Assembly (NCBI RefSeq): GCF_024223415.1
Contig: NZ_CP100500.1
Direction: 5' to 3' (one strand)
Source of the DNA: Escherichia coli
Lineage (GTDB): Bacteria; Pseudomonadota; Gammaproteobacteria; Enterobacterales; Enterobacteriaceae
Length of the DNA: 64,000 bases
The notes beneath the pieces were generated by a model. It was not told the origin of the DNA. It saw only the letters and a list, made by a program, of their open reading frames with translations, and made no database searches. Of this stretch, positions 18,743 through 49,107 are shown piece by piece. The translations under genes and the position numbers were made by a program. Positions within the stretch are counted from its first letter, which is position 1; the number at the start of each line of letters is the position of its first letter.

Positions 18743-20857
18743 TCAGTCAGCCACTAATAGCGGACTAGGGACACCAGATGATGAAACAAACAGCCCTTTT
18801 ACGGCACGGGTTGCAGCCACATGCAGTAACGCGCGCTCATTAAATAATGCATCACGCTGTTCAACGGGATCATCGGATGCTAATGCTTTTATTTCCGGCA
18901 CAACGCCTTCGTTAATCCCCACCAGGAACACATACTGGAACTCAAGCCCTTTAATACGGTGCATCGTTGCAACCCGCACGCCAGGGCGTGCATCGCTGTC
19001 ACCGCTATCATTGCCTAAATTAAATGTCTCAATTCCGGCGTCATTCAGTGCTGATGCGTAGCGGTCACAAGCATGTTTAGTACGCGCAGTAATGCAGATA
19101 TCCTGAGAACGAACCTGATTCGCCAGCAATGCCTGAATTTGCTTGACGAGCGTTGCAGCCTCTTCTTTGAAATCTGCCGCATGCGTAATCATGGGCTTTT
19201 CCCCGTGCAGTAATGACAAATAATCATTACTGGTATCCGCTTCGCCATCGAGGTTATCAACCTTCACACCAGTTAACAGCCCAACAGCAAATTGACGCGT
19301 CTCTTCTGTGGTCCGATAGTTAATCTTCAATTTTTTACTGCGACGACCACGGACGTTAATACCACACTGACCAAGAACGACCTTATTGCGATAAATACGC
19401 TGATGCCCATCCCCGACAATAAACAGATCGTTGGGCGACTCGGGAACCAGGCTGCGAATAAGAGTAAATGCCGGGGCACCGATATCTTGAGCTTCATCGA
19501 CCACAATACTGCTATAAGGTAGTTGGACCTGCTTTTCTTTAAACAGAACAATAGCCTCATGCATGGCATCGCCCATTTCGCGCAGTTTGGCACGCGCCAT
19601 TTGTGCTCTGAATTCTTCAAAGACTGGCCAGATTTTCGCCCGTTGAATACGGGATAACGCTGTACCACGTCCAACCCGGCTGACTTTGAGGTATTCCTCC
19701 CGGGTGTAAACCGCATTTGGCTGGACAACGCGTTGCCACTCTTCAGCATAGAAATTATCAGGTAGCCCCAGTTCGGCAGGTGCCTGCTGCAAGGCATAGT
19801 TCCAGCATTTGCGTCGCCCTTCATCGCTGTCGTATACCACGCGGAAATCATAACCGTGGCGTTTTAGTTGGTCGCTCATCCAGGCATCAATGTTAACGAC
19901 GTCAATACGCGCCATCTCTTCTCGCGTACACAACCGCTGGAGATTAGCGCGAATATCTGCCGCCAGGTTACGCGTAAAGGTCGTGAAAAGTACCTTCTTA
20001 CCGGGTTTATCTGCCAGACGCTGAGATAACCACCGCGCACGGTGCATCGCAACAACCGTTTTCCCTGTACCTGCACCGCCCAGTACTCGTACCGGACCAT
20101 TAGCGGGCGACTCCACCAGTTTTCGCTGGCTCGGATGCAGAAATACACGCCATTTTTCTAAAGGCGCATTAAGCATCTGCAACAGCTCCTGTTCATTTTC
20201 AACGACATGGAAGCGACGTTTACTTCGTTCAATCGCCTCCATAAAGTCGTTGGTATCAACAGGCTCATCACGATGATCGTTAAACTCTTCCAGCACTTCC
20301 TGGTAATCCAGCCCTTCTGCCAGCCAGTGCAGAGGTTCCCAGGCTTCTGCTGGCATTATGCTTTCAAGTTGGTTAAGCCCGGCTTCATCGGTAAGCGCCA
20401 TCACCTGATCAATAAAGACAGGCGGCACGCCCAGGGCCAGAATCTGTTCCGCGCTGTAAGCCGCGAAGAGTTTCGGTTTATCAACCACCGCTTCCGGTGC
20501 CGGTTTGATATAGCTAATATCAATAACCTGAATCGCGCCGGTAACTGGGTGAATCGAACAATCATGCCGCCGCGCCCAGTCGTATGCTTCGTCGTGTTTA
20601 TCCACCCACATCAGCATATACAGGGCACCCTGTTCAGGTTTCAGAACAATGCCGCGATAAGTTTGATCGATTCGCACCGAATGGACATTTTTACTGCGCG
20701 CATCGTGGATCTTTTCATAGTTAAGTCCATTACTGGTCGGGTCCTGACGGAATTTGGAGATGAATTCCTGCACCTTTTTTTGCTGTGCTTTTGGGATCCG
20801 CGCGAATGCGCCCAGAAAACCATCAGAAAGTGCCACCTTGGGCGTTTGCACCGTCAT
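18743..20857 (-). CDS. UvrD/PcrA-like superfamily-1 helicase with ~250-aa N-terminal extension (last gene of four-gene defence operon)
   Basis: Walker A VLGGAGTGKTVVAMHR, Walker B IVVDEAQDI, C-terminal motif VATMHRIKGLEFQYVFLVG. The start ATG overlaps the stop of the upstream 2113-aa gene (ATGA). Confidence 0.75.
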   Translation of the reverse strand: MTVQTPKVALSDGFLGAFARIPKAQQKKVQEFISKFRQDPTSNGLNYEKIHDARSKNVHSVRIDQTYRGIVLKPEQGALYMLMWVDKHDEAYDWARRHDCSIHPVTGAIQVIDISYIKPAPEAVVDKPKLFAAYSAEQILALGVPPVFIDQVMALTDEAGLNQLESIMPAEAWEPLHWLAEGLDYQEVLEEFNDHRDEPVDTNDFMEAIERSKRRFHVVENEQELLQMLNAPLEKWRVFLHPSQRKLVESPANGPVRVLGGAGTGKTVVAMHRARWLSQRLADKPGKKVLFTTFTRNLAADIRANLQRLCTREEMARIDVVNIDAWMSDQLKRHGYDFRVVYDSDEGRRKCWNYALQQAPAELGLPDNFYAEEWQRVVQPNAVYTREEYLKVSRVGRGTALSRIQRAKIWPVFEEFRAQMARAKLREMGDAMHEAIVLFKEKQVQLPYSSIVVDEAQDIGAPAFTLIRSLVPESPNDLFIVGDGHQRIYRNKVVLGQCGINVRGRRSKKLKINYRTTEETRQFAVGLLTGVKVDNLDGEADTSNDYLSLLHGEKPMITHAADFKEEAATLVKQIQALLANQVRSQDICITARTKHACDRYASALNDAGIETFNLGNDSGDSDARPGVRVATMHRIKGLEFQYVFLVGINEGVVPEIKALASDDPVEQRDALFNERALLHVAATRAVKGLFVSSSGVPSPLLVAD

Positions 20858-23800
20858 TTGTCACCTCCGGACAGATGTTGCAATGTATTTTCGTCAATTG
20901 GCCCGAATGCAACGTGCCAACCTCTGGTTGTGAATAATGGAATAAATTCTTGATTATCAATAATCAATGCCCATTTTTGTGATGGCCAGGCGAGATCGGC
21001 TTCCGCAATAATTTCACCTTCATCATTTTGCAATTCGTAGCCGAGAGTCGGCGCAGAGAGAGAATGAGACTGAAGCAACGCGATCTCTTCAGCGCTTAAT
21101 AAGCCAAACTCAATAATCTCAGCCCAACTCTCATCAGTCTCTGGTACTGCCTCTGGCGTTGCCGAAACTTTAGTGTCAACGCTTTCCTGCGGTAAATGCA
21201 CGGCTTTACGGCTGGTAAAGGTCATATCCGGCAGGAACTGTAACAGGTTTACCAGTCGCCAGAAGCCATTGAGTCCCGCTTCATAACCGTCATCCTGCGT
21301 ATAGCGATCGTCAAAACAGATATGCAAACGCAGCCAGCTGCGCATTTGTGCGACGCTGGTCGTCGGTTTAATGGCTTGTTGTGGCAACACCGAAGCCAGC
21401 TCAATAAATTGCTGCGATGAGTTACAGCTATCGAGTAAACCACCAAAGACAAACGGTTCGTCTGGCAAAAGCTCTGCTAGCCGCCAGGCTGGCGCGTTTT
21501 CCTGCATTTCATAGGCATACTTTTGTTTCGTTCCCGCGTCCTGTGACTTCTTCACATCCAACCACACCCAGGCATGTGCAGCAGCCATTCTCTGCCATAA
21601 CTGCGTTCTTCCGCCCGGATCGGCGAGATAATCCAGCAGCAGTGCAAAACTGTTGCGTTCCCGGAACGACGCTTCAAGGGCCGCAAAGTTGGTATCGTGA
21701 AACAGGTTATAAAACTTAGGCTGTTTCATATCCGGGTTATGCCCAAGTCCCAGGACATCCTGAACATGTTTAAGCCCAGGCTCTTTGAGATCGGCCCACG
21801 TGACTGTCCACACCCAGAAATTACCGCTATCCCGAATCGCCTGGCGTTTTTGCACATCCTCTGCGACGCTATTTTTGTGGAACGCAAAGCCATCAAGGAA
21901 AATAGCCACCGGTTTAATGACATCAGACTGCATAAGCGGATATAGCACGTAATCCGGGCGACAAGGGATCCCCACCGCCTCTTTAGCGCCTAAATCCACC
22001 TGAGCTTTAAGATGCCAGCTCATCATCGGTTCGCTGCGGGTGTTAATAATCCACCCAGCGCCCTGATGCGCGTAACTGCGACTGACAATCAGGTTTTTAT
22101 TTTCTTGCAGGCAGCTAATAAACCGTTTTTCCAGCTCACTGCCCATCATGGCTTCGAGGGAAATGTTTTTGATGGAATCAATTACCCGTATCGAATCTCT
22201 TGCCTGCAAAATTTTCGCCAGCAAGAGACGCGCCTGATCGCGGGAGACATACTTCATGCGCCCACGGTCACGGTAAGCGTAAACGCAACGATAACAACCA
22301 TCTTTATGCGTATCATTGTTGCAACTGCATTCCACTATTGCCTGATAGGCCAGTTCAAGTAATTTCAGCAAATTGTCGGGAGTGCGCATCAGCTCTTTAA
22401 GAGAACCAGTTCCCCCCGGGACGGTATCGTAAATCACCAGATACTGCCTCCAGGATTCGCCTTCATTTTCCGGCTCGCGGTACACAACGCCTTTCAGGTG
22501 ATCGACATTCCCCTTGAAGTAATGTTTAAGGCCGAGCTGGATCGCCGCCCCAAGAGAAGCCTCCACGACACGGTCATTACTGTAACTGCTTACCGGGAGC
22601 AGAATACGCAACGCTTCTGACTCCAGCTGGCGATAGAGATAGAGATAATCTTCGAACTTCGCCTTTTCCGGTTCCGTGCGATATTTGCAGCTCAAATCAT
22701 GACGTGGTTCATGATCGCGAGGACGCTGCACCATGCCGCACCCGAGGCAAACTTTAAACCCGGTTCGCTTCTTCGCTTCTCCGGCAATCATCAACTCATT
22801 GGCATCATCCGCCATTTTGCCGAAGTTGATATCCCGCAGGGTGACTTTGCTTAAAAATTCAAAACCAAACGGAACTTCGCCTTCCTCAATCGCGTATGCC
22901 GCCGATACATCTTCTTTTTCGAAACTAACCAATAGCTGACGCTGGAAGAAAGCAGGTTCACGGCTGTCGCTATCGTCGCTGATCTGGCTATCACGTGCGC
23001 TGGCGCGGGCATAAACCTGGCGAAGTTTCAGCAGCGTGGTTTTTTGTCCGGCATCGGCCCACCCCGGTGTGCCACATTTCGGGCAATATTTATGCTGGTC
23101 GCCCGTCTGGTCGATATTTTCGCTGTAGTTACAGTGGCTACAGATACGCCAGTTCTCCGGCTCAGAGACCTTCAGGTCTATCTGCTCAATTTCAACTTTA
23201 TGCCCACCGGCATAGAAATTATTCAGCGGAGCCAGCTCAGCCAGCGCCGTTGATGCCGGGCGTTCATATTCGAAAGTGGTGTTTTGATATTCACGCGCTT
23301 CCCCGCCTTCTTTACGCCGCCAGAGCACAGAACGTAACGTAATACCGGCTTCCGGGAAGGCGTAGTTAGGCAGCAGACCTTCATCCGTGAGGAAATTCAG
23401 CGTTTGCTTATTGTTGATTTGATTGACCAGCGCCATCAGCGCCTGCCGTTCTGAAGTCAGTTCGCGCATATCGCTGTCAAAGTTTTGATCGCGCGGCGCG
23501 TTCTCCAGTTTATCGATGCTGCGCTTGAGTTTATCGATGCGTGAGCGCAAAGATTTGCGATCTTCCACCAGCAGTTTTAACGCTTCTTCGATACGCTGCA
23601 CCAGCGAACGTTGCCCTGGCGCGCCCTGAAGATAAGACAACAGCTGTTGGCGAGTTTCTGCGGCAAGATCGGGGAAGATCGCCGTAAATTGTGCAGCAAT
23701 CTCCGCATGATGCTGTTCGATATATCGCAGTAAGTTATACGGAAAACCCGATTTACGCCCGAACTCCAGCTCATCCAGCATCTGTTTGACGTTTTTACAG

Positions 23801-26800
23801 ATAGCGGATTCTGGTACACCGGTTTTCACCCAGTTATCCATACAAAAAGCTGCCAGCTGGCGTTCGAGAATAGCCGTTGCATTGAGGAAGACGCCAGGAG
23901 CCTGCACCTGGCCCTGCATCATCTCCAGCGGTTCTTCAAAGAAAAACTGATCGTGCGGGTTCCCTTCTGCCACGGTAATGTTTAACGCGTTACCATCTTT
24001 ACGACCGGCGCGACCAATACGCTGCAAGTAGTTGGCCTGAGCAGGTGGGACAGAACAGAGTAAAACGGTGGAAAGATCGCCAACGTCAATACCCATCTCC
24101 AGCGTCGGTGTTGCCGACAACAGGTTGATATTCCACGGTTGGTTGCCGCGGTAGAACGATTTTTCGGTGGCTTCGCGATCTTCACGGCTAAGCAGCCCCG
24201 TGTGTTCTGCGCCCTGTACGCGCGCGATGTCCATGTTCTCCCAACGCCAGGTCGCCGTATTGTCGACTTCCTGGTAACGACCTTCACAACGTAAAGAGAG
24301 ACAAGGCGCATTACGCCACTGCCAGCCTTGATCGGCCGGAGCCCGGACAACCTCACGGCAACATGAACAATTAAGCTGAACGACGTCACGGCTCACCACC
24401 AGCGCCGAAGGCACCAGTCCCCAGGCTTCACGCCCTTTGGTGTCAAAATCTTTTACTACTCCGGCTATTTTCAACGCCGTAAACAGGCGTCGTAACACTG
24501 TTTCCGCAACGCTACTGATAAACAGATTATTGCCGTTACTCAGCGTGCGATTGATCCAATGCTGATACCAACTGGGGTTAGACTTCGCGCCAATCAGGCG
24601 ATGGAAACCATTAATTTTTTCAAACGACGCATAAGCCGGTTTACGCGTTTTCGGACCGATAGAAGGCATATAGCGCGAGGTACGCTCTTTTTGCGTCATC
24701 ATAAAGGTCGTGCCATCACGGCGATAACTTTCGAACGCCGGATGCATAACGGCCCCGGCCTGGCGTTGATACCAGATAACCCCCAGCGCCAGGTGCGCGA
24801 CCTGCTCGACGCTCACACCGGACATCTCATCACCCAGCTCTTCACAAAGCTGTTGATGCAGGGCGGTAATTGCCGGATTAAAGCGTTCTTTATCCACTCC
24901 GGCAACGGCATAACCGGTGGCTTCCAGCGTACGTCCGATACGCGCGCGCAGGGTGAATTCGCTGTACACCTCCCAGTCGAGGCGCAGGGAAACCAGCTCC
25001 GGCAGATCGGAGTTCTCCGCCAGTTTGCCTTCATTTTTCAGCATCTGATAATCATTCAGCCACTGCATATTTGGTGCGATGAAGTTCGCTGCAAAATGAG
25101 CATCGTCCGGTGAACGTTCACGCGTTTGTTGGCAAACACGCGCCGCGAACGCATCCAGCGGTAATGTCTCTTTTTCGCCAAGAACACTGGCGATTTGCCC
25201 ACGAATCATCAGCGGCCAGGTACGGGCAGTAAAGAAGCTGGCACGATGCGCGGCGTCTTGTACCGAGTCAGAAAACGTAATCAGCTTTTTATGTTCGTTG
25301 AACTGGCTGCCATAAAGCTGGTGAATCATCACCGCCGACAAACTGGCAGCCCGTGACCCCAGGATCGAAATCCCCTGTTTGCTGTTGCAGTACGGGCATT
25401 CATTAGCAAACTCCAGCTCGTCCTTACGCTCTTTGAGCATATCCGGGATCAGTACCTGCAACAGTTCCGTATGACCGCAATGTCCACACTGGACGCTGGA
25501 CTGTCGGTTCAGTTTCAGACAGGTAGGACACAGTTTCTGGTGTGCGCCACTGACCGCTTTTTCGTTGTTATCCGGGAAAGCAAGGACGATGGAGCGTCCT
25601 TTTTCAAAGAACTGGCGATAAATGCCGTCGAGGTCTGTTTCCAGCTGAACGCTTTGCCCATGACGCAGGCTGGCCCAGCCAGTTGCGTGGCAGTCACGGC
25701 AGTGGATAACCGGCAAATAGTGTTCGCGATCTTCCACCGCCACATCATCGGCAAACACCAGTCGGGGCGTTTTCGCCACGCTGGCGACCAGACGACGCAT
25801 CTCACGAAGCCACAACTGGGAGCGCAGTTGCACAAACGGCAGCACCGGACGCGCTTTCTTCGCCTGGAGACGTTTTTGCCGATCGTGTTCCGTTTCCGGT
25901 ACTTCGAGACGTGCCTGTGCGATCAGCGCCAGAATGCTTTGCAGCACGCGTCGGGCATGGTCGGCGCTTTCTGCCAGCATGACCTGGAGATTTTCCAGAC
26001 ACTCTCGTTCAGAGAGGATCCCGCCTTGCAGATCATGGAGTAAGACATGCATCACGCTGTGGCGGCGTAACAGTGACCCCAGCGCAATACGCTTTTCACG
26101 CCCGTCGTCGCTCTCCAGATCGTCCGGGAGTTGCAAGTCGCTGTCGGGGAACCACAAAGGGATTTGCCCGTTAAGATACGCTACCGGGGTAGCGTAACTC
26201 TGCGGGTCCAGGGCCGAAGCGACCTCCGGCCCCGGATACTGACTGTACGCAATGGCGTAATCCTGCAAGTACTCCGCTGCCGTGTAGCGATCTTCGCGAA
26301 TAACGGCGTCATCGGTAAACGGCTGGTCAAAGATTGTTTTTGCGTAATCGAGCAGTTGCCCCAGCTCGTCGCCGACGGTAGCTGATGTCCCGACGCAGGC
26401 GAATCGTTGGTTATCTACACCTATGTGATGCTTCAGACGTCGCACCAGACAGGCCAGATCCGACCCTTGCGCGCCATCAAACGTATGCAATTCATCCACG
26501 ACCAGGTAACGCAATGAACCGGGCTGGTTGTAACGCCAGAGCGGCTGATCGCCAGGGCGCATCAGCAGGTAGTCGAGCATTTTGTAGTTGGTCAACAGGA
26601 TGTCCGGCGGGCTTTCGCGCAGCGTGTGCTTGCAGGTAATGACCTTTTCTGCCGACATTTTTTTGCTGGGTTCGATTTCGCTGTCGCCGACAAACAGGCC
26701 GACGGTCACCTTGCCATGCAGTTGTGTATCGCTGGCGATGGTTTTGGCGAAACGGCTGGCCTGATCGGTTGCCAGGGCGTTCATCGGGTAGATGATAATC

Positions 26801-27195
26801 GCTTTAACCCCGGCTTGTGACGCGCCCGCGCAGTGGTTGAGCAGCGGGAACATAAAGCATTCTGTTTTACCGGAGCCGGTACCGGTAGCAACCAGCGTCG
26901 GCTGTGGCGCGTCGCTTCCCAGACGCTGAAATGCCCGGGCCTGATGCGCGTGCGGCGGGAACGGCAGCGTCAGATTAGGGAAGAAATTCAGCGGTAAGTC
27001 ACTTTTACGAAACGGCAACTGGGCGGAAAGGTATGGTCCTTTCAGCAGCGTTTCGGGCTGGGCCAGAAATTGCTCCAGCATTGAGACATTATCGTTATTC
27101 TCACCGTTAAACAGCGGACTGTTTAGCGGGAACGCCGCCCGTAAAAAGGCGGCAACGCTGTCGGCGACCTGCCGACTGACAACGGATGGCAGCAT
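20854..27195 (-). CDS. 2113-aa DEAD/DEAH-box helicase with Cys-rich DUF1998-like region (DrmA+DrmB-like or DruE-like giant helicase)
   Basis: Motif I ATGTGSGKTECF, motif II VVDELHTFDG, motif VI QRIGRAGRKDG about 800 residues later, then CxxC clusters (CSHCNYS…CPKCG, CLGCG, CSCNND…CYRCV). C-terminal PDYVLYP…IFLDGFAFH patch might be a nuclease-like fold. Confidence 0.7.
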   Translation of the reverse strand: MLPSVVSRQVADSVAAFLRAAFPLNSPLFNGENNDNVSMLEQFLAQPETLLKGPYLSAQLPFRKSDLPLNFFPNLTLPFPPHAHQARAFQRLGSDAPQPTLVATGTGSGKTECFMFPLLNHCAGASQAGVKAIIIYPMNALATDQASRFAKTIASDTQLHGKVTVGLFVGDSEIEPSKKMSAEKVITCKHTLRESPPDILLTNYKMLDYLLMRPGDQPLWRYNQPGSLRYLVVDELHTFDGAQGSDLACLVRRLKHHIGVDNQRFACVGTSATVGDELGQLLDYAKTIFDQPFTDDAVIREDRYTAAEYLQDYAIAYSQYPGPEVASALDPQSYATPVAYLNGQIPLWFPDSDLQLPDDLESDDGREKRIALGSLLRRHSVMHVLLHDLQGGILSERECLENLQVMLAESADHARRVLQSILALIAQARLEVPETEHDRQKRLQAKKARPVLPFVQLRSQLWLREMRRLVASVAKTPRLVFADDVAVEDREHYLPVIHCRDCHATGWASLRHGQSVQLETDLDGIYRQFFEKGRSIVLAFPDNNEKAVSGAHQKLCPTCLKLNRQSSVQCGHCGHTELLQVLIPDMLKERKDELEFANECPYCNSKQGISILGSRAASLSAVMIHQLYGSQFNEHKKLITFSDSVQDAAHRASFFTARTWPLMIRGQIASVLGEKETLPLDAFAARVCQQTRERSPDDAHFAANFIAPNMQWLNDYQMLKNEGKLAENSDLPELVSLRLDWEVYSEFTLRARIGRTLEATGYAVAGVDKERFNPAITALHQQLCEELGDEMSGVSVEQVAHLALGVIWYQRQAGAVMHPAFESYRRDGTTFMMTQKERTSRYMPSIGPKTRKPAYASFEKINGFHRLIGAKSNPSWYQHWINRTLSNGNNLFISSVAETVLRRLFTALKIAGVVKDFDTKGREAWGLVPSALVVSRDVVQLNCSCCREVVRAPADQGWQWRNAPCLSLRCEGRYQEVDNTATWRWENMDIARVQGAEHTGLLSREDREATEKSFYRGNQPWNINLLSATPTLEMGIDVGDLSTVLLCSVPPAQANYLQRIGRAGRKDGNALNITVAEGNPHDQFFFEEPLEMMQGQVQAPGVFLNATAILERQLAAFCMDNWVKTGVPESAICKNVKQMLDELEFGRKSGFPYNLLRYIEQHHAEIAAQFTAIFPDLAAETRQQLLSYLQGAPGQRSLVQRIEEALKLLVEDRKSLRSRIDKLKRSIDKLENAPRDQNFDSDMRELTSERQALMALVNQINNKQTLNFLTDEGLLPNYAFPEAGITLRSVLWRRKEGGEAREYQNTTFEYERPASTALAELAPLNNFYAGGHKVEIEQIDLKVSEPENWRICSHCNYSENIDQTGDQHKYCPKCGTPGWADAGQKTTLLKLRQVYARASARDSQISDDSDSREPAFFQRQLLVSFEKEDVSAAYAIEEGEVPFGFEFLSKVTLRDINFGKMADDANELMIAGEAKKRTGFKVCLGCGMVQRPRDHEPRHDLSCKYRTEPEKAKFEDYLYLYRQLESEALRILLPVSSYSNDRVVEASLGAAIQLGLKHYFKGNVDHLKGVVYREPENEGESWRQYLVIYDTVPGGTGSLKELMRTPDNLLKLLELAYQAIVECSCNNDTHKDGCYRCVYAYRDRGRMKYVSRDQARLLLAKILQARDSIRVIDSIKNISLEAMMGSELEKRFISCLQENKNLIVSRSYAHQGAGWIINTRSEPMMSWHLKAQVDLGAKEAVGIPCRPDYVLYPLMQSDVIKPVAIFLDGFAFHKNSVAEDVQKRQAIRDSGNFWVWTVTWADLKEPGLKHVQDVLGLGHNPDMKQPKFYNLFHDTNFAALEASFRERNSFALLLDYLADPGGRTQLWQRMAAAHAWVWLDVKKSQDAGTKQKYAYEMQENAPAWRLAELLPDEPFVFGGLLDSCNSSQQFIELASVLPQQAIKPTTSVAQMRSWLRLHICFDDRYTQDDGYEAGLNGFWRLVNLLQFLPDMTFTSRKAVHLPQESVDTKVSATPEAVPETDESWAEIIEFGLLSAEEIALLQSHSLSAPTLGYELQNDEGEIIAEADLAWPSQKWALIIDNQEFIPLFTTRGWHVAFGPIDENTLQHLSGGDK

Positions 27196-30100
27196 CAGGC
27201 GTTCTCCTTATCTTGTGCAAAGAACGCCCAGGCCACTTTGTAGTCGTCTTCGCGATCTGGCTTGATAAACGGAGCCTGCCAGGTGACGGTGCGGCGCTCG
27301 CCTTCGTCGCTGCGGGTATAGTCATCAAAGGTGACGCTGACGGTACCGGTTTTCAGATGTTTGACATCATCCCAGCCGATGGCTTGATCGGTGCAGTCAC
27401 CGCCGGTCCACTCCGGGCTGTCGACGTTAAAGACAAAGCTGTTTTTCAGATCAGCTTTACGGGCGGTACGCGGCAGACCGACGCCCACCAGCCCTTTGCT
27501 TGGGGTAAAGATGATGCGGCCGTTTTGGTCGTACCAGGTGTCCGCTTCGTACTGGCGCATCACCGGGAACTGTACACGGTAAATGGTAAGCAGCTCTTCG
27601 AGAGTTAACCCCAGCGCCTGTGCCACCAGCACGTCGATTTCCACCAGCGCCTGACGACGACTGTAGTCGGAGCGTAAGGCGCAGTTACGCTGCCACTCTG
27701 GGGTCAGATTGGTGAAGAAATCTTGTGGCAGCAGCGGGAGATCGCGGCTCCAACGCTGGGTGTTGAAGTCTGGGGTGTAGCAGGATTGCCAGAGATCGGC
27801 GTAATCTTTCGTTAACACATTCAAAGCTAATGCTCTTGAGTTTGCACTCATTAGCTCAACATAAGGGAAGCCACGCAATGTTGATTCATAAACATCCGCC
27901 CGTCCTGTTGTTTTCAAATAAAAATCAGCCACTATTGAATGGCAAAATGCAGAGAAACTTAGCAGGTTTATTGGCTCTCTAAATGTTGTTGAGAGTACAG
28001 GGTGTATATGAGCAACGTGCTTTGGAACTATGCTGGATATCATCGAGCGTTCTGATGATGCCCCAAACATTCTCCGATTAACAAAACGATAATAATCCGT
28101 CACCTTCCTCGGCTCGTCTTCATCCTGCTCTTTCCACGAAACCCGTGGGGTGCGCTTTGCATACTCCTGTGCATCACATGCCGGAATGTAGTTAGTTCGC
28201 GGCAGGTAATCGTCGGGCAGGGTTAATAAATCAAGGCAATCATAATGGCTATTTGCCTCACAGAGAGCTCTTGGTGTCTTATTGAAAGGATTACCCACGA
28301 AGAAATGGGGACCAGACAATACCCATTGAGAAGCATCTTTTGGATACATTGTTTTACGCTCGATAGTGCCATCAATTTGCTGATTTGTTTCATGCCACAT
28401 TTCCAGAGAAAAATACTGGCCTTGCAAATCGCCTAATCGCTTCGGCTGATTGGCAAATTTTTCCAATACCGCGACAAGTTGCTCTGCGTGCAAAGCGGGA
28501 AGACGAGCCTGTAATGCTGGCGTGTCGGGTTCATCATACAAACGAGCAAATAAAGCTAGCTGCTCTTTCGTGACACGAATAAGCCTGGATTTATGACCTT
28601 TAGTATTCCATCGGCTATAGTAAACATCTTTTATATAACCTTCTTCCTTAATGCCACCAACCAATCCATCACCTGAATGCTCAAAACTCTCATCAAGAGT
28701 TGAAGGAATAAAAAGATTATTAATATTAATAAACTCCACGTCGTTCGATTTGGTCATAGAGTAAACATGTGTCCCAAATTTCATTCGACCGTGATCATTT
28801 GTTCCAACAAATAGAGAAAACTCATTTTGATATTGGCAATGTAGACGTAACCTTGGATAGATCTCTTCTCTGAAGAGCCCTCCCTTAGGATCGTCATATA
28901 CCCCCTCTGGGTGAACAAATCCTGCCACGCCTTTCTCTGCCCCCAGACGCCAGGCCTGAGGCAGGAAGCATTTATACAAGTTGGTCTGCACCCCGCGCAG
29001 TACCGGGTAGTTTTGCTGCGCATTGAGGAAGTTTTGCATCCCTTCACAGCCTTCATACTCGCTGCGCCAGGCCGCTTCCAGCGCCGGGATCTGGTTAAAG
29101 GTATCAATACGCAACGTTGCCAGCTTCGATGCACTCAGCTTACGCAGCACAAATTCCGGCTCGTAATCACCCAGCACGCCCGCTTCCTGCCATTCCACTT
29201 TCAGCCACGGCGGGTTTCCGAGCATCAGGTCAAAACCGCCGCGCTCGGCAAACAGGTCGCAGAACTCCAGATCCCAGTGGAAGAAACGGTGCTGCTTTCT
29301 CAGGGCATCGACAATCGCCAGACGCGGCAAATGGCGGAACAGCACATCGGTTTTCAGACGACCAGCAACGGAAAACAGCGAAGACTCTTCTCGCAGCAGG
29401 CCTTCTTCGGCAAACAGATCGCCAGTAGTGCGCTCCGCAACTTCAGTGACTTTTTCCGTAATCACAATCCCGTCGAGCAGGGTTTCAATCTCAAACAACC
29501 AGGTACCGCGATCCGGTAACTCATCGGCTTTGTCGATCGGCCAGAACCACAGCGCGCACCAGTAGTCCATCACCCAACGCAGCTTCTGGTAGGCGCTGTT
29601 ATCTTCAAGACGACCGCTAAAGGTTTCATCTTTACTGCTCAGCGAAGAACGCGTCTGCTCGCTGTTTTCTGCCGGCCACACCGGGTAGCTGTCGGCGGTT
29701 TTCAGACGTTCTGCTTTAAGTTGCTGGCGATAGGTGTTCCACAGTGCTTCCACCTTTTCGCTGATACGCTGCACATCAGCAATCTCATGCCCGGCAAAGC
29801 TTTTAATAAACTCTTTGCGCCAGCTGTCCAGCGCTTTGAAGTCATCCGGATAACGCTGCTTAACAGTTTTATCGCTGTAGTTAGCCATACCGCCGTCGGG
29901 CAGCAGGAAGTGGAAAATCTGCGTCTCTTCACGCGGCGTGTTCATCGCCAGTTCGACCGGCTCGCTGTTAAGCCAGCTAGGATCTTTGGCTTTTTTGTAG
30001 GTCAGTTCGCTCTTGTTGAACACCTGACGGCGCGCGCCCACCAGCGAGTTACCGCAGTGCAGCTGGTAACCAAACCACGGTACAAAGGCATCGCCACTGA

Positions 30101-32126
30101 TGGCGTTCAGCCACAGCGACACTTCCGCCAGCTCCACCGCCACCGGGTTTAAGTCCACGCCGAAAACATTGTTATCGGCAATGTACATTTTCACCCGCTG
30201 TAACTCCTGGGTGTAACGATCCTGCGGAATACGGCGACCTTCCGCCTGCTGCTTGTGGAACAGATACGCTTCCGCCAGCTGGTTGATGGCTTCGTTAAGG
30301 AACGCCGCGCTGCCCATCGCCGGTTCGCACACAGTGAGGTTTAAGATGGCGTCGGCTTTGGCGTGCGGATCGCTAATGGGATCAATCTGCTCCTTAAACA
30401 GTTCTTTCAGGGCATATTTAACCAGTGAGCGGGTCAGCACTTCCGGGGTGTAATAAGAGGCAGATTTCTCACGGTCGCGCCCGGCCATACGGTAGATAAA
30501 GCTGCCTTTGCGGTGAATGCGCAGACTGCCGTCTTTCTCGTAGACCTTCTCGTCTTCGTGGTATTTGCCAATCTCATCCTTACTGACGAAGTAACCTGTC
30601 TCCAGCTCGTTAAACTCTTCCCCGGCTTTCTTCACCTCGTAGAGATCTTCGCTGGCGAAGAATCCACGATAGGAGAGCAGCGCCTCATACACCGCACCCA
30701 ACTGGTTGATACCCAACTGGCGATAAGAAATACGTCCGCGGCGGTTAAAGCGCCCTTTGGCCGGGCGGCTTAACGACATCGCCTGGATAATCTGTTGCAG
30801 GGTTTCGTTACGGAATACCACGCGGTTAAGAATGCGCGTGTTGTTGGCATCAAACAGATGACTTTCCAGACGCGGGACGCTGAACTGATGACTATGGATG
30901 GTGATCCGGTCGCCGCTCTCCAGGTCACTCTGCATTTTCACGCCGCCGTTGTAGCCTTCGCGCACCAGTTTAAACAGCATATTCAGGCTGTCGTGGAAGT
31001 AGCGCCCGTTGCGATCTTCTTCGCTGGTCAGCGGGATCATCTCCAGATCGCGCAACGTTTCCAGACTGTAACCTTGCAGATAGGTTTTGGCTGTCATTGG
31101 CGCATAACCCAGCTCCGGGCGCGCTTCAATGTAGAACAGGAACAGCAGGCGGTACATGTAACGCAGACATTCGCGGCTCAGTTCATCCGGGTCCACCGCA
31201 CGGTTACCGGTATAGTTTGCCAGGCCACGGTCGATCAGATAATGCATCGCTTCGTTGCCCAGCAACTCAATGCTTTCGCGCAGGGCATATTTCAGATCTT
31301 CCGAAACACCAAACGCATGTTTGTGCGAATTGTCATCCAGCGAGTCAAGATAAGGTGCCCCACTGCCCGGCAGCAGAGAATCTTTATGTAACAACACCGC
31401 AGTCGCTTTCAGCGTATCCGTTTCACGACGGCTTAAAATCTCTTCAAAATCAAAACGTAGCAGACGGTTTTGCGCCCACTTAGTACGGTCCAGCAGCAAT
31501 AGCTGACGGTTACCGAGCAGCAGCACAAAACGCGGCGGTTCATTTTGGGTGAAGACCGCCGTAGAGAGCAGATCCTGCCAGCTGCGATATTCACCGTTGG
31601 CTTTTTTGCGCAGGCTGTCGCGCTTATGTTTGTCGGTATCCGCCGGGAATTGCGCGGTCAGTAAGGAGAGCGCCAGCGGATCCAGCGTTCCTTCTTCCTG
31701 ATCGTGTGCTTCAACAATCCACAGCCACGGGCTACCGTCAGTGCTGTTGTAACGCGCCAGTACCGGCAGCGGTGTATCGTCATCCAGCATTTGGATCTGT
31801 GGCGTAATTTCGTAGCCCAGCGCCTTTAACAATGGCTGCCAGCGATTACGTTGATCGGCCAGACGCTGCGGGATCTGACGCTGTTTTTCGTGCTCGGCAA
31901 GTTTGCGGAAAAACTCAGTCGCCAGACTGTTAAACTGGTTCCACGGAGCGCGGTATCCCGGCTCCACGTCTTTGCCCTGTTCACGAGCGGCACGCTCCGC
32001 TTCACGCGCTGCATTTTCCTTGGCTATCCAGGGTTCCAGCACATCGCGGATATCACTGGTGAAAACCTCACCCAAATAGTGGTTAGAGTAAAATTCGTTT
32101 TCGTTATTAATACCGACCAGCGCCAT
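27195..32126 (-). CDS. 1643-aa N6-adenine DNA methyltransferase (gamma-class; DrmMI/PglX-like)
   Basis: SAM-binding motif I …CEPAMGSAAFL… and catalytic motif IV …LGNPPWLKVEW… (NPPW). Its stop overlaps the start of the 2113-aa gene. Confidence 0.8.
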   Translation of the reverse strand: MALVGINNENEFYSNHYLGEVFTSDIRDVLEPWIAKENAAREAERAAREQGKDVEPGYRAPWNQFNSLATEFFRKLAEHEKQRQIPQRLADQRNRWQPLLKALGYEITPQIQMLDDDTPLPVLARYNSTDGSPWLWIVEAHDQEEGTLDPLALSLLTAQFPADTDKHKRDSLRKKANGEYRSWQDLLSTAVFTQNEPPRFVLLLGNRQLLLLDRTKWAQNRLLRFDFEEILSRRETDTLKATAVLLHKDSLLPGSGAPYLDSLDDNSHKHAFGVSEDLKYALRESIELLGNEAMHYLIDRGLANYTGNRAVDPDELSRECLRYMYRLLFLFYIEARPELGYAPMTAKTYLQGYSLETLRDLEMIPLTSEEDRNGRYFHDSLNMLFKLVREGYNGGVKMQSDLESGDRITIHSHQFSVPRLESHLFDANNTRILNRVVFRNETLQQIIQAMSLSRPAKGRFNRRGRISYRQLGINQLGAVYEALLSYRGFFASEDLYEVKKAGEEFNELETGYFVSKDEIGKYHEDEKVYEKDGSLRIHRKGSFIYRMAGRDREKSASYYTPEVLTRSLVKYALKELFKEQIDPISDPHAKADAILNLTVCEPAMGSAAFLNEAINQLAEAYLFHKQQAEGRRIPQDRYTQELQRVKMYIADNNVFGVDLNPVAVELAEVSLWLNAISGDAFVPWFGYQLHCGNSLVGARRQVFNKSELTYKKAKDPSWLNSEPVELAMNTPREETQIFHFLLPDGGMANYSDKTVKQRYPDDFKALDSWRKEFIKSFAGHEIADVQRISEKVEALWNTYRQQLKAERLKTADSYPVWPAENSEQTRSSLSSKDETFSGRLEDNSAYQKLRWVMDYWCALWFWPIDKADELPDRGTWLFEIETLLDGIVITEKVTEVAERTTGDLFAEEGLLREESSLFSVAGRLKTDVLFRHLPRLAIVDALRKQHRFFHWDLEFCDLFAERGGFDLMLGNPPWLKVEWQEAGVLGDYEPEFVLRKLSASKLATLRIDTFNQIPALEAAWRSEYEGCEGMQNFLNAQQNYPVLRGVQTNLYKCFLPQAWRLGAEKGVAGFVHPEGVYDDPKGGLFREEIYPRLRLHCQYQNEFSLFVGTNDHGRMKFGTHVYSMTKSNDVEFININNLFIPSTLDESFEHSGDGLVGGIKEEGYIKDVYYSRWNTKGHKSRLIRVTKEQLALFARLYDEPDTPALQARLPALHAEQLVAVLEKFANQPKRLGDLQGQYFSLEMWHETNQQIDGTIERKTMYPKDASQWVLSGPHFFVGNPFNKTPRALCEANSHYDCLDLLTLPDDYLPRTNYIPACDAQEYAKRTPRVSWKEQDEDEPRKVTDYYRFVNRRMFGASSERSMISSIVPKHVAHIHPVLSTTFREPINLLSFSAFCHSIVADFYLKTTGRADVYESTLRGFPYVELMSANSRALALNVLTKDYADLWQSCYTPDFNTQRWSRDLPLLPQDFFTNLTPEWQRNCALRSDYSRRQALVEIDVLVAQALGLTLEELLTIYRVQFPVMRQYEADTWYDQNGRIIFTPSKGLVGVGLPRTARKADLKNSFVFNVDSPEWTGGDCTDQAIGWDDVKHLKTGTVSVTFDDYTRSDEGERRTVTWQAPFIKPDREDDYKVAWAFFAQDKENA

Positions 32127-32128
32127 GA

Positions 32129-34987
32129 TTAACCCTCCGCTCCGGTGATAACAGCAATTACCTGAATGTAGGGTTCTTTTTCAGTCGTCATGGTGTCCTC
32201 AATCCATTCGATATAGCTGTCAAAATTGTGTTCGATTTCGCGTTGTCTCTGCTCTTTACGGCTCTGCTTGACTGACAATTGCTGTTTGTTATCGGCAAAA
32301 TCCAGCTCAAGTTGGCTCAACTGCCGCCCACGCAAAACGTCCAGCTTTTGCAGATGCTCATTCAGTTGCTGGTTAATGTGCGTTTCAAACGCATTCCGAT
32401 CATGGATGAATACCTCCCGGGCATGAGCAATAGCCGCTTCAAGTAAATCCTGCTGGCGTTGGTGATTACGATCTTTACCGCCGCTGTTAGTCAGCTTGTT
32501 ACTCAACTGCGGATGACGTTGTAAAAACTCAGCGAATGGCTGACTGCCGATTAGCGATTCACGGTTAAAGCTCACCACTATCCACGGGTTCACCATCGGA
32601 TGTGATTTACGGTTCGGGAATAACCCGGAAAGAATGAAGTGATCTTCATCGGGTTCAAGCAGGTATGGCAGACGGATAACTGGTGCCTGATGACGACCAA
32701 AAGCCGAAGAGATTTTATCGTCCAGCCACTGCACTACCGGGTTGATTTGCCAGAGATACTGCACATCGGGCCAGGCATGTTGCTCACCGCGAGCGCGCGC
32801 AATCGCGTCGGTGATGACGGTTTTATCCTGACTTAAATAGAGCTGCCAGTTCTCCGGGGCAATTTCAGGCGGTAGCTGGTTGAAGCGGCGGCGTAACTCC
32901 TCCGGAGCCACCAGCGACAAGGTATTATCAGGCAAGGTTTCATACTGGATAGTTTGACCACTGGCTTTCAGGTAACCCAATGCTCTTTCGCAGTACGCCT
33001 GTTCGCTGGCAAACAAGCTGGTGTCTGCTTCGGTGACCATTGAGGCATCGCTGGAAACCGCACTGCATATTTCGCCAAACAGATCGTGTTCGGCGCTTTC
33101 CGAGACGTTGCTGTTCAGCAGTTGATCAAACAGGCTGGCACCATCATCCTGCATCATGAACTCTGCAACCTGCTCTTCTTCCTCTTCCTGGGTAAATTTG
33201 CCGGTAAACTCCGAACTGTCCCCAATGTTCTTCTGCGCCTGTTCGTCTTTGTTGATCAACACTTCCAGTACGCGCATATCGCCATTGATCTGTGGTTCGC
33301 TGGCCTCAGTAAGCAGATAGCGGATTTGAGGCTGATGTTTTTGCCCATAGCGGTCAATACGCCCGTTACGTTGCTGGAATACCATCAACGACCACGGAAT
33401 ATCAAAGTGAATCATTTTGTGGCTAAGGTGATGCAGGTTGATCCCTTCAGATGCCACATCCGAACAAACCAGAAGACGCAACGGCGACTGCGTTTTACCA
33501 AAGGCTTCTACGGTTTCCATCAATACCGTATCGCCCTGATCGCCGCGCAGCGTGGCGATCTGGTCATCTTTCAATTTCAGATCCGCTCGCAGTTGCTGTT
33601 CGAGGAACTCCAGCGTTTTAATACTTTCGGTGAAGATCACCAGGCGATCTTCCGTGTTATTGGCTTTCCAGGCGAGGTCTTTTCGGATGGTGTCGAGCAG
33701 CAACTGGTATTTGCTAAACTGGCTGGCATCAATATTATTCAGCGCCAACAGCAATGACTCCAGTTCGTTGATCTGGCTCTGGCTATTATGATCTTTACGG
33801 CTCTCAAGACGCTTCAGACGATTCGCCACGACGCTGGCACACGCCATCGGGCTGGAAAATAGCGCTTTTTCGAGGGTTATCTTGAACAGACGACCTTTGT
33901 TAGACTGGGCCTGTTCATCGTCATCATCACGGAACTGGCTCTCAACCAGACGACGGTATGCTTCTTCTTCGGCACCGGATGCCAGGCGAGTCAATTTGAC
34001 AATATTGCGCTCGGGAAACTCGCCGGACATCTGATCTTTCACGTCTTTTTTGAAGCGACGGACAACCAGATTTTTATCGGCAAAGTCGGCGTATTCATAC
34101 TCTTTCGGGTTGGCGATCGCCGTCGGGTCAAGCATGTTCATCAGGCTGGCAAAACTTTCAGCCTTACCATCATGCGGCGTTGCTGAAAGCATAATCAGCG
34201 TATCGCTACGCCCGGCGAGCAGTTTTGCCAGTTTACTGCGTAACGAACTGGTTCCACGTTCTGCGACGTTATGGGCCTCATCAATGACAATAATATCCCA
34301 CCAGGCATTTTCCAGATGGTGACGATATTCAATGTCTTGTTTCAGCGTATCGATGGAGATAATGGTCTTGTCAAAATAGTGGAACGGGTTGTGGTTGGTT
34401 GGGATGCGGTTACGCACCTTTTGTAAACCAGCAGAATCCAGGCGGGTCAATGGGATCGCAAAACGGCTCCAGAACTCCTTCTGGAATTGTGTCAGCATCG
34501 ATTTGACCGCCAGAACCAGAATACGTTTTCCGCGCCCACGACGGATCAGCTCCGAAACCAGAATACCCGCTTCCAGTGTTTTACCCAGACCGACAGCGTC
34601 GGCAATGAGTATCCGCTGACGCGGTTGTGCCAGCGCCATCCGCGTAGGATCGAGCTGAAACGGCATGGAATCCATCGCCGCCAGATGACCAAAATGGACT
34701 TTACTGTCTGTCGGTACGCGTTGGCGTAACTGACTTTCGATATACAACTGCGCCGCTTGATAATTGGCGGATTCATCTTCCACCAAATGCGTTTTTGCGG
34801 GATCCAGGATCTCTACTTTTTGTTCCAGTTTGGTCAGAAATAACCCTTCTTTACCGCGCACAAGCTCTGAAATACCATCGCAGGTCAGCAAATACCCACC
34901 ATCACCACTGTCATCCGCCCGGCGAATACGCCATTCGGCATCACGAATAACCACCCGCATACCAGGTGCATAATTTTGCTTATTCAT
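32129..34987 (-). CDS. 952-aa SNF2-family helicase (DrmD-like), first gene of operon
   Basis: SNF2 Walker A LIADAVGLGKTLEAG, DEAH box IIVIDEAHNV, motif III LMLSATPHDG, C-terminal helicase motif …FQQRNGRIDRYGQ. It ends 2 nt before the methyltransferase start. Confidence 0.85.
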   Translation of the reverse strand: MNKQNYAPGMRVVIRDAEWRIRRADDSGDGGYLLTCDGISELVRGKEGLFLTKLEQKVEILDPAKTHLVEDESANYQAAQLYIESQLRQRVPTDSKVHFGHLAAMDSMPFQLDPTRMALAQPRQRILIADAVGLGKTLEAGILVSELIRRGRGKRILVLAVKSMLTQFQKEFWSRFAIPLTRLDSAGLQKVRNRIPTNHNPFHYFDKTIISIDTLKQDIEYRHHLENAWWDIIVIDEAHNVAERGTSSLRSKLAKLLAGRSDTLIMLSATPHDGKAESFASLMNMLDPTAIANPKEYEYADFADKNLVVRRFKKDVKDQMSGEFPERNIVKLTRLASGAEEEAYRRLVESQFRDDDDEQAQSNKGRLFKITLEKALFSSPMACASVVANRLKRLESRKDHNSQSQINELESLLLALNNIDASQFSKYQLLLDTIRKDLAWKANNTEDRLVIFTESIKTLEFLEQQLRADLKLKDDQIATLRGDQGDTVLMETVEAFGKTQSPLRLLVCSDVASEGINLHHLSHKMIHFDIPWSLMVFQQRNGRIDRYGQKHQPQIRYLLTEASEPQINGDMRVLEVLINKDEQAQKNIGDSSEFTGKFTQEEEEEQVAEFMMQDDGASLFDQLLNSNVSESAEHDLFGEICSAVSSDASMVTEADTSLFASEQAYCERALGYLKASGQTIQYETLPDNTLSLVAPEELRRRFNQLPPEIAPENWQLYLSQDKTVITDAIARARGEQHAWPDVQYLWQINPVVQWLDDKISSAFGRHQAPVIRLPYLLEPDEDHFILSGLFPNRKSHPMVNPWIVVSFNRESLIGSQPFAEFLQRHPQLSNKLTNSGGKDRNHQRQQDLLEAAIAHAREVFIHDRNAFETHINQQLNEHLQKLDVLRGRQLSQLELDFADNKQQLSVKQSRKEQRQREIEHNFDSYIEWIEDTMTTEKEPYIQVIAVITGAEG

Positions 34988-35058: not shown

Positions 35059-35093
35059 AAAAAGAGGGCCTTAAAGATATCATGAAGGCCCCC
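35059..35093 (-). terminator. candidate rho-independent terminator between the Druantia-like operon and the SNF2-led operon
   Basis: On the minus strand: gggcctt-(12 nt loop)-aaggccc followed by tctttttt. Confidence 0.4.
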
Positions 35094-35210
35094 GGCAAAG
35101 TGACAAAATGGGAGGGAATGCGCATAAATTGCGCATGATTTTCAAACAAAAATTATTAAAAAGTGAGCTGGGTCAACTCCCCTGGAAGATATCCCCAGGG
35201 AAGCAATTAT

Positions 35211-38693: not shown

Positions 38694-38755
38694 TAAGTGG
38701 TTAACTAACGATTTCCAGTGAGCCTGCTCAGGTTGTATTGCCGGAAAGACTGCGA

Positions 38756-48753: not shown

Positions 48754-49032
48754 CTTTGTAGACAGGAGACAGTCACAATGAATAAAACAATAAATTGATG
48801 TCGCACGCGCCGATGGGCATGGCGGGTAATGTAACTTTTGTACACAACGGCAAGGCTTATGTTACTGGCGGTGTTAACCAGAACATCTTCAATGGCTATT
48901 TTGAAGATCTCAACGATGCTGGAGAATATTTAGCAGCTATAGACAAGATCAATGCCTATTATTTCGACAAAAAAGCAGAAGATTATTTCTTCAATAAGTT
49001 TTTGTTGTCTTTTGATCCCTCAACACAGCAAT
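48754..49032 (+). pseudogene. diverged nanM remnant (first ~37 bp of nanM fused to an internal ~240-bp nanM segment), preceded by a nanC-promoter-like GGTATA repeat at 48687-48700
   Basis: 48754-48790 matches 15079-15115 (gtagacaggagacagtcacaatgaataaaacaataa). 48791-49032 matches 15460-15700 at roughly 90 percent identity by eye. Same orientation as the intact nanM. Confidence 0.8.
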
Positions 49033-49107
49033 GGATCTTCACTTGCAGGCTTGAACAGCAGAAAATTTGCGAGCATGATCGCAATTATTTCACTGCCAGG
49101 GATATCA

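Follow-up and report, generated by a model that had tools for sequence, protein, structure and literature searches.

The segment 18743-34987 of the 64,000-nucleotide stretch of E. coli DNA analyzed here (hereafter, the window) very probably represents armABCD, the operon of a type II ARMADA system that defends against phages. This system has already been named and tested in two preprints of September 2025 (Bell et al., PMC12458937; Li et al., 10.1101/2025.09.22.677730), which defined its components (ArmA, ArmB, ArmC and ArmD) and showed that they block phages. Hence, although genuine, the finding is not novel and adds nothing as a discovery. What we add is modest: the variation of ArmB maps to two blocks that reassort independently, which offers a testable handle on how ARMADA tells self from non-self. 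Among the determinants of phage resistance in EHEC O157:H7, ARMADA type II is the dominant one; about 10% of the complete genomes of E. coli contain it, antibiotic-resistance plasmids included, and spotting it matters for both phage therapy and genome annotation.

Identity and setting of the operon

According to the ORF map, the operon consists of four minus-strand genes, the first two of which (counting from armA) are separated by 2 nt, while the following junctions overlap by 1 nt and 4 nt:

32129..34987, minus strand: armA, 952 aa
27195..32126, minus strand: armB, 1643 aa
20854..27195, minus strand: armC, 2113 aa
18743..20857, minus strand: armD, 704 aa

This tight packing had been described in an earlier note on this DNA, and all the motifs listed there were found by the ORF map and a motif scan. 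The profile searches that the note proposed confirmed the domains of all four proteins (Pfam, PADLOC and NCBIfam), with matches to SNF2, N6-adenine methyltransferase, DEAD, Helicase_C, MZB and UvrD domains. The resulting gene order, that is, an Snf2 (BrxHII-like) helicase, a PglX-like methyltransferase, a YprA-like helicase and a GajB-like helicase, is the strict order of ARMADA type II when the ORF map and profile matches are compared to the published definition. Further, of the eight residues that Bell et al. mutated, 8/8 are kept in the window proteins at identical numbering.

ARMADA type II loci have been described in E. coli NCTC 12900, ATCC 8739 and EDL933 (PMC12458937; 10.1101/2025.09.22.677730), and the O157:H7 strains tested are NCTC 12900 (Bell et al., PMC12458937) and EDL933, genes z5899-z5902 (Li et al., 10.1101/2025.09.22.677730). 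Sakai shares the O157:H7 serotype with both of these strains and encodes near-identical proteins, which argues for the ARMADA type II identity of the window operon: ArmA is 99.9% identical to ECs_5261, ArmB 89.4% to ECs_5262 (with the identity spread as a mosaic), ArmC 99.6% to ECs_5263, and ArmD 99.7% to ECs_5264 over aa 1-652, as far as the compared Sakai region covers this gene. The whole 16.2-kb cluster is present at ≥95% identity in 535/5,426 complete E. coli genomes and therefore represents a conserved unit, not a chance arrangement. The databases searched do not name ARMADA: PADLOC-DB v2.0.0 (2023) matched armABCD only to components of DISARM, Druantia and type IIG-like systems, and NCBIfam returned only sub-threshold DrmD and generic helicase matches.

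A near-identical orthologous operon alone protects E. coli from many phages, including Drexlerviridae, Demerecviridae, siphoviruses and some podoviruses (PMC12458937; 10.1101/2025.09.22.677730). Protection depends on all four genes, on Walker A and Walker B in both ArmA and ArmC, on Walker A in ArmD and on NPPW in ArmB (PMC12458937). The relation to class 1 DISARM and Druantia that the earlier note had recognized agrees with the description of ARMADA as a "missing link" between the two (Bell et al., PMC12458937). The note was also right that a single DruE-like protein combines the functions of the DrmA-like and DrmB-like parts, and that a PLD nuclease is absent; the HxK(x4)D motif occurs in 0/4 proteins by motif scan, and PADLOC and Pfam gave no PLD profile match for any of them. 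Its proposal of an undescribed DISARM/Druantia variant has to be given up, since the 704-aa protein is a canonical member of a defined system with this exact gene order, i.e., ARMADA type II as published in September 2025, and the note itself had named such a placement as grounds for abandoning the proposal.

The operon is flanked by DruH and DruE of Druantia III and by ZorA2, ZorB2 and ZorE of Zorya II; DruH belongs to the adjoining operon and not to armABCD, and the neighboring druE is frameshifted in the window. armA is intact in the window and annotated as frameshifted in the RefSeq record of NCTC10444, whose chromosome the window resembles, so that it may or may not be functional in the strain itself. 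The two indels concerned, at 34386 in armA and 38830 in druE, may be assembly errors. The stop of druE and the start of armA lie 223 bp apart, and the gap contains one weakly supported promoter candidate with a 9/12 consensus match:

35079..35106, minus strand: sigma-70-like promoter candidate

The promoter and terminator scan of the region yielded 22 vs. 16.5 ± 4.4 and 27 vs. 19.7 ± 4.7 sites in the actual vs. shuffled sequence; these counts are not significantly above expectation and the armA promoter candidate is, therefore, offered as a suggestion. A terminator-like hairpin follows druE at 35165-35179. The tRNA-Leu(CAA) gene leuX lies at 53329-53413, and no exact direct repeat of its 3' end of ≥13 nt, which would mark an island boundary, was found in the window.

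ArmA, ArmC and ArmD

ArmA is a Swi2/Snf2 helicase of the BrxHII/DrmD-like kind (Pfam SNF2-rel_dom and Helicase_C), with DAVGLGKT at aa 130, DEAH at aa 236, and both K136 and D236 present. ArmC is a YprA-family DEAD/DEAH helicase-nuclease (Pfam DEAD, 84-278; Helicase_C, ~993-1066), with GTGSGKT at aa 105, DELH at aa 234, nine CxxC motifs, and K110 and D234 present. BrxA-like, beta-barrel zinc-binding and MarR-like insertions are among the features by which ArmC of ARMADA type II has been defined. In the PDB, the window's ArmC is closest in sequence to 9tu7, a "DEAD/DEAH box helicase" of 2108 aa, and to YprA (6znp, E 4e-20). Three further features of ArmC and one of ArmD could be placed:

22282..22551, minus strand: armC MZB (former DUF1998) zinc-binding domain, aa ~1549-1638 (Pfam PF09369, E 7e-13)
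21751..21993, minus strand: armC predicted Vsr-type PD-(D/E)xK nuclease core, aa ~1735-1815 (fold and conserved residues)
20908..21132, minus strand: armC terminal domain, aa ~2022-2096, homologous to the ZorE C-terminal domain (PADLOC ZorE2 positions 282-357, E 6e-9)
20513..20857, minus strand: armD predicted N-terminal RelE/ParE-superfamily domain, aa ~1-115 (fold comparison)

PDB sequence searches matched neither the ArmC C-terminus nor the RelE-like region of ArmD (only the UvrD region of the latter protein was matched), and fold comparison was needed for this reason. The structure predicted for the ArmC C-terminus has the fold of a Vsr-like nuclease, in which acidic and histidine residues are conserved, and ArmC is accordingly predicted to carry a C-terminal Vsr-type PD-(D/E)xK nuclease. 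Thus, the view that the system is nuclease-less does not hold at the level of prediction. A word-indexed homologue search with this region returned only 5 proteins and was replaced by an exhaustive search of representatives, which gave 916 matches. The terminal domain also resembles the window's own ZorE (BLASTP, 39% over 57 aa, E 1e-8; tblastn, E 4e-8), and a domain shared in this way could physically link the co-localized systems.

ArmD is a UvrD/GajB-like SF1 helicase (Pfam UvrD-helicase, 241-490; UvrD_C, 509-693; PADLOC GajB, 124 bits), with GGAGTGKT at aa 260, VVDEAQD at aa 452, HRIKGLEFQYVFLVG at aa 633, and K266 and D454 present. The earlier note was correct about a UvrD-like helicase with an extra N-terminal domain; the label "uncharacterised" no longer fits that domain. 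The N-terminal ~240 aa have no Pfam match, but the structure prediction that the note had suggested yielded a confident RelE/YafQ/YoeB fold with R62, R68 and H88 invariant, from which RelE-like activity is predicted.

RelE-family domains are ribosome-dependent mRNases. Accordingly, one might consider that the ArmD domain is a toxin freed upon infection to shut down translation, i.e., that the system acts by abortive infection, and the fold and its invariant residues would suit such a role. We consider this improbable, however, since cells remain intact and metabolically normal after infection at high MOI, from which Bell et al. concluded that protection is direct and non-abortive (PMC12458937). 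Deletion of armD in EDL933 was also milder than the other deletions (10.1101/2025.09.22.677730), and the ArmD Walker B mutant D454N showed only a partial loss of defense (PMC12458937).

ArmB, its variable blocks and a possible mechanism

ArmB is a PglX/DrmMI-like N6-adenine DNA methyltransferase, with weak Pfam matches (Eco57I/MmeI_Mtase/N6_Mtase), a 191-bit match to DrmMI, and CEPAMGSAAFL at aa 600 (G605 present). Its strongest PADLOC match, nearly full length, is to REase_MTase_IIG (PDLC03614, 960 bits), and both deletion of armB and N971A abolish defense (N971A: PMC12458937), as would be expected if the operon were a type IIG-like restriction-modification core in which ArmB methylates and cuts, with three accessory helicases. 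Such an arrangement appears still less probable than abortive infection: no nuclease domain was matched by Pfam in ArmB aa 1-530 and no PDB sequence match was obtained for ArmB, the conserved predicted nuclease sits on ArmC instead, and deletions and ATPase mutants of ArmA, ArmC and ArmD each abolish or reduce defense (PMC12458937).

The catalytic motif and the two variable blocks of armB, the latter delineated by comparison of 12 E. coli alleles, are as follows:

29205..29216, minus strand: armB catalytic motif IV, NPPW, aa 971-974 (motif scan; N971 present)
28527..28844, minus strand: armB hypervariable block V1, aa ~1095-1200, putative target-recognition module 1
27762..28094, minus strand: armB hypervariable block V2, aa ~1345-1455, putative target-recognition module 2

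Among the 12 alleles, mean pairwise identity is 38-56% in V1 and 32-56% in V2, compared to 97-100% in the constant parts of ArmB. That is, the variation is limited to two blocks, both C-terminal to NPPW, and these reassort independently of each other among E. coli strains. Gamma-class methyltransferases (MmeI/PglX family) carry their target-recognition domain C-terminal to NPPW. Since the two shuffled blocks lie where these enzymes have that domain, the variation points to strain-specific sequence recognition by ArmB. The window allele is ≤44% identical to each other allele in V1 and ≤55% in V2; relative to the alleles tested for defense, identity in the recognition region (aa ~1051-1450) is 34-82% in 50-residue windows. 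The DNA segment 27745-28890, which covers V1 and V2, is found at ≥99% in only 1/5,426 complete E. coli genomes, i.e., the window allele is unique. It is tempting to hypothesize that the DNA sequence recognized by ArmB is specific to the strain, possibly bipartite, and set by exchangeable V1 and V2 modules that are reshuffled by recombination, similar to type I HsdS, so that ARMADA type II would be sequence-programmed and modification-dependent and the window would have a so far unique specificity. We hold this idea tentatively and put it slightly short of an even chance. Strain-specific recognition by ArmB is not a topic of either ARMADA preprint (PMC12458937; 10.1101/2025.09.22.677730), and the word "methylation" occurs zero times in Bell et al. 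(PMC12458937). For ARMADA, the literature reports neither a methylome or methylation motif nor DNA cleavage or the structure of a complex, and a 2026 review lists it among systems "restricted by unknown mechanisms".

A four-step chain of events, which as a whole we regard as about equally likely to be right or wrong, could accommodate these elements. ArmB would read a strain-specific motif through its two exchangeable modules and mark the host DNA. It would also be an obligatory part of the restriction machinery, as in BREX, because a strain lacking armB was made and grew, yet lost defense (Li et al., 10.1101/2025.09.22.677730). ArmA, as an Snf2 translocase, and ArmC, as a YprA-type helicase with an OB-CON-DUF1998 canopy, would then engage unmodified invading DNA or ssDNA-containing intermediates, which the Vsr-type nuclease of ArmC would cut. 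ArmD may serve as an accessory motor and, through its RelE-like domain, possibly as an RNA- or ribosome-directed module.

Relation to known defense systems

The window locus shares with published ARMADA type II the four genes, their order and domain architecture (down to the Vsr-like nuclease of ArmC and the RelE-like N-terminus of ArmD), the catalytic residues at identical numbering, and the Druantia III and Zorya II partners. It differs in its unique ArmB V1/V2 allele and its frameshifted druE; its anti-phage activity is predicted from that of its orthologues.

Class 1 DISARM (DrmD, DrmMI, DrmA, DrmB, DrmC) resembles ARMADA in that it, too, combines an Snf2-like helicase with a large N6-adenine methyltransferase and with a YprA-family helicase plus DUF1998, and in its presumed discrimination of unmodified DNA. 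A DISARM of non-canonical make-up, with DrmA and DrmB fused and DrmC replaced, would explain the matches of ArmA to DrmD (PADLOC, 333 bits), of ArmB to DrmMI and, weakly, of ArmC to DrmA (50 bits), as well as the label "DISARM I-related" that the locus received in a DefenseFinder-based analysis (Li et al., 10.1101/2025.09.22.677730). We nonetheless judge it very unlikely. ArmA scores well below the curated DrmD cut-off (NF038317, 349.9 vs. 610 bits), ArmC is much nearer to DruE (348 bits) than to DrmA, and the helicase and DUF1998, fused in one 2113-aa ORF here, are consistently split in DISARM. In the phylogeny of Bell et al. (PMC12458937), ARMADA forms a separate, strongly supported clade on the Druantia-containing side, apart from DISARM. 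ARMADA also has a Vsr-type nuclease fused to the helicase instead of the PLD nuclease DrmC, and encodes one more helicase, which is UvrD/GajB-like and carries a RelE-like domain.

Druantia type III (DruH-DruE) is encoded side by side with ARMADA, and both have a YprA-family helicase of ~2100 aa that includes DUF1998 and, at its C-terminus, a nuclease. The best PADLOC matches of ArmC are to DruE3 (348 bits) and DruE1 (324 bits), the length of 9tu7 suggests a DruE, and Druantia type II, as Doron et al. 2018 are said to have described it, includes a methylase. Yet a Druantia subtype in which the 2113-aa protein is an ordinary full-length DruE, with the SNF2 helicase and methyltransferase as standard neighbors, is the least credible reading and hardly tenable, given that the DruE matches of ArmC are partial (the genuine DruE next door reaches 981 + 1150 bits on profile PDLC00037), DruH, DruA-D and DruF/G are absent from armABCD, the ArmC C-terminus is Vsr-like rather than tandem PLD, and ARMADA branches separately (Bell et al., PMC12458937). 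Conversely, Druantia type III lacks the methyltransferase, Snf2 helicase and UvrD-like helicase of ARMADA, with which it acts synergistically (PMC12458937; 10.1101/2025.09.22.677730).

BREX type 1 (PglX, BrxHII) shares with ARMADA type II a PglX-like methyltransferase needed for defense and presumably modification, and a BrxHII/RapA-like Snf2 helicase, and ArmB alleles vary where gamma-class enzymes carry the target-recognition domain. ARMADA, however, lacks BrxA/B/C, BrxL and PglZ, has a YprA-type helicase-nuclease, and its ArmB falls far below the NCBIfam PglX cut-offs (27 vs. 900 bits; 25 vs. 500 bits). Finally, the helicase core of ArmD matches GajB profiles, but Gabija was rejected for armABCD because the operon has no GajA partner, and ArmD adds a RelE-like N-terminal domain and a helical linker to the GajB-like core.

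The operon and its identity as ARMADA type II

Four co-directional ORFs make up the minus-strand operon armABCD (window 18743-34987), tightly spaced, with 2 nt between armA and armB and overlaps of 1 nt (armB/armC) and 4 nt (armC/armD), and profile searches (Pfam, PADLOC and NCBIfam) gave the following domain content.

Open reading frames of the operon (ORF map; window positions)
32129-34987, minus strand: armA, 952 aa, SNF2-type helicase
27195-32126, minus strand: armB, 1643 aa, Eco57I/MmeI-type N6-adenine methyltransferase
20854-27195, minus strand: armC, 2113 aa, DEAD/Helicase_C helicase; MZB (DUF1998) domain, aa ~1549-1638
18743-20857, minus strand: armD, 704 aa, UvrD-type helicase; no Pfam match in the first ~240 aa

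The operon described in the earlier note is thus real; all of that note's motif strings were found, at defined positions, the SNF2, N6-adenine methyltransferase, DEAD plus DUF1998 (MZB) and UvrD content was upheld by the profile searches, and the HxK(x4)D PLD motif was, as stated there, absent (0/4 proteins in a motif scan). Its suggestion of an undescribed DISARM/Druantia-related variant has been superseded, since the four genes form a known system, ARMADA type II: exactly this operon was defined in two September 2025 preprints (Bell et al., PMC12458937; Li et al., bioRxiv 10.1101/2025.09.22.677730). The published components include a BrxHII-like Snf2 helicase (ArmA), a PglX-like methyltransferase (ArmB) and a YprA-like helicase (ArmC) (PMC12458937), and armABCD of EDL933 is z5899-z5902 of O-island 172 (10.1101/2025.09.22.677730). 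Identity to O157:H7 Sakai is 99.9% for ArmA (ECs_5261), 89.4% for ArmB (ECs_5262), 99.6% for ArmC (ECs_5263) and 99.7% for ArmD (ECs_5264, over aa 1-652, the compared part of the Sakai gene). Further, every residue that Bell et al. mutated is conserved (8/8) with the same numbering (K136 and D236 in ArmA, G605 and N971 in ArmB, K110 and D234 in ArmC, K266 and D454 in ArmD). Judged by its sequence, the operon has every testable defining feature of ARMADA type II, and its interest comes mainly from the putative specificity modules of ArmB and from ARMADA's mechanism, not from the operon's existence.

Variable blocks of the methyltransferase ArmB

ArmB is a mosaic relative to its Sakai counterpart, with ~100% identity over aa 1-1050 and 1451-1643 and 34-82% in between. 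Among 12 E. coli alleles, the constant parts share 97-100% identity, and mean pairwise identity is 32-56% in two hypervariable blocks, which are separated by a short stretch (aa 1301-1325) of 99% identity.

Hypervariable blocks of ArmB (window positions)
28527-28844, minus strand: V1, aa ~1095-1200
27762-28094, minus strand: V2, aa ~1345-1455

V1 and V2 reassort independently among E. coli strains. For instance, allele pTEM135_005215 carries the V1 of SC516 (99%) with the V2 of CUVET16-819 (100%), and allele PapRG-06-5 an SC516-like V1 (87%) with the V2 of THO-008 (99%). The window's own V1 and V2 share at most 44% and 55% identity, respectively, with all other compared alleles, and the DNA of its variable segment occurs at ≥99% identity only in NCTC10444 among 5,426 complete genomes. 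Both blocks lie C-terminal to the catalytic motif NPPW, where gamma-class methyltransferases (MmeI/PglX family) have their target-recognition domain. This pattern of variation argues for sequence-specific recognition by ArmB through what would be exchangeable specificity modules. Li et al. reported armB as the island's variable gene, with the variation neither localised nor interpreted (10.1101/2025.09.22.677730); mapping it to two blocks is a modest addition beyond the published ARMADA work.

Genomic setting

The window differs from the E. coli NCTC10444 chromosome (NZ_LR134092.1) by 15 substitutions and two single-base indels over 49 kb.

Gene order in the window
fim operon
nanC, nanM, nanS fragment
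transposase pseudogene
armABCD operon
Druantia III (DruH, DruE; druE at 35211-41533, minus strand)
Zorya II (ZorA2, ZorB2, ZorE), divergent transcription
nanM fragment
48952-49980, plus strand: phosphorothioate-DNA-binding HNH restriction endonuclease (NCBIfam NF045808, 438 bits)
50603-52651, minus strand: 682-aa ORF
tRNA-Leu(CAA), leuX

The HNH endonuclease adjoins Zorya II and is a fourth defence gene of the island. The 682-aa ORF abuts leuX and had no match in NCBIfam or PADLOC; Sakai has an integrase-annotated gene at the corresponding position. A 245-bp direct repeat between part of the intact nanM (15451-15695) and the nanM fragment (48791-49035; 92.7% identity) flanks the entire ARMADA-Druantia-Zorya array, which points to an earlier insertion or recombination event at the nan locus and represents a possible route to loss of the array.

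The 16.2-kb operon was found at ≥95% identity in 535 of the 5,426 complete E. coli genomes, with 23 plasmid-borne copies among the matching places. On the multidrug-resistance plasmid pYLPD7b (NZ_CP074049.1, 14001-35943; cmlA1, aadA1, qacL, sul3), an intact armABCD lies beside a druE remnant cut off by IS903B, with IS elements all round; that is, the operon travels there with resistance genes.

The window's druE is split into two ORFs (925 and 1160 aa) by a 1-nt deletion at 38830 in a T-run (7 T vs. 8 T in RefSeq NCTC10444, where druE is intact, 2104 aa), which reflects either faulty assembly or a genuine inactivation of the system with which ARMADA synergises. Conversely, NZ_LR134092.1 lacks one G at the site corresponding to window 34386, inside armA, and annotates this gene as a pseudogene with a frameshift; in the window, the 952-aa reading frame is intact. 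Hence, the broken helicase gene differs between two assemblies of one strain, or of near-identical strains. The final ArmC domain (20908-21132) and the non-HNH domain at the C-terminus of ZorE (48299-48505) are homologous (33-39% identity, E ~1e-8), with the two encoded 27 kb apart in the same island, so the co-localised ARMADA and Zorya II have one module in common.

Proposed mechanism and comparison with known systems

The orthologous NCTC 12900 operon protected against 13 of 80 phages in a direct, non-abortive manner, with all four genes essential; defence was abolished by mutating Walker A or Walker B in ArmA or ArmC, by mutating Walker A in ArmD and by ArmB N971A, and only partially lost with ArmD D454N and ArmB G605A, and ARMADA showed synergy with Druantia III in ATCC 8739 (PMC12458937). 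In EDL933, armABCD is the dominant phage-resistance determinant, with a reduced requirement for ArmD (10.1101/2025.09.22.677730). No ARMADA methylation motif, cleavage activity or structure was reported in the literature searched.

We propose that ArmB reads a strain-specific motif, which it methylates, and would also be part of the restriction machinery, since the delta-armB EDL933 strain was constructed and grown, yet defenceless (10.1101/2025.09.22.677730). Foreign DNA lacking the modification would be unwound by ArmA and ArmC or serve as their translocation track, ArmC perhaps acting like MrfA/YprA and DruE (a reported 3'-to-5', ssDNA-binding helicase). The Vsr-type domain of ArmC would then cut this DNA; at the ArmC C-terminus, Bell et al. 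describe a Vsr-type PD-(D/E)xK nuclease that is active, in many cases with inactivated EEP and Vsr domains behind it (PMC12458937). ArmD, which also has a RelE-like domain, may serve as an accessory motor. We consider the whole chain about as likely to be right as wrong.

Among known systems, type IIG restriction-modification is suggested by the 960-bit match of ArmB to a REBASE-derived PADLOC profile; against it, ArmB has no Pfam-detectable nuclease domain and no PDB sequence relative, and the conserved nuclease of ARMADA is on ArmC. A Druantia assignment would rest on ArmC-DruE matches that are partial (the true neighbouring DruE reaches 981 + 1150 bits with that profile), and there is no DruH inside the operon. 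Assignment to class 1 DISARM fails, with ArmA reaching 350 bits against a cut-off of 610 for the DrmD equivalog of NCBIfam, ArmC, a fused helicase and DUF1998 protein, at 50 bits on DrmA vs. 348 bits on DruE profiles, and the PLD nuclease absent. The loss of defence on deletion of armB resembles PglX of BREX.
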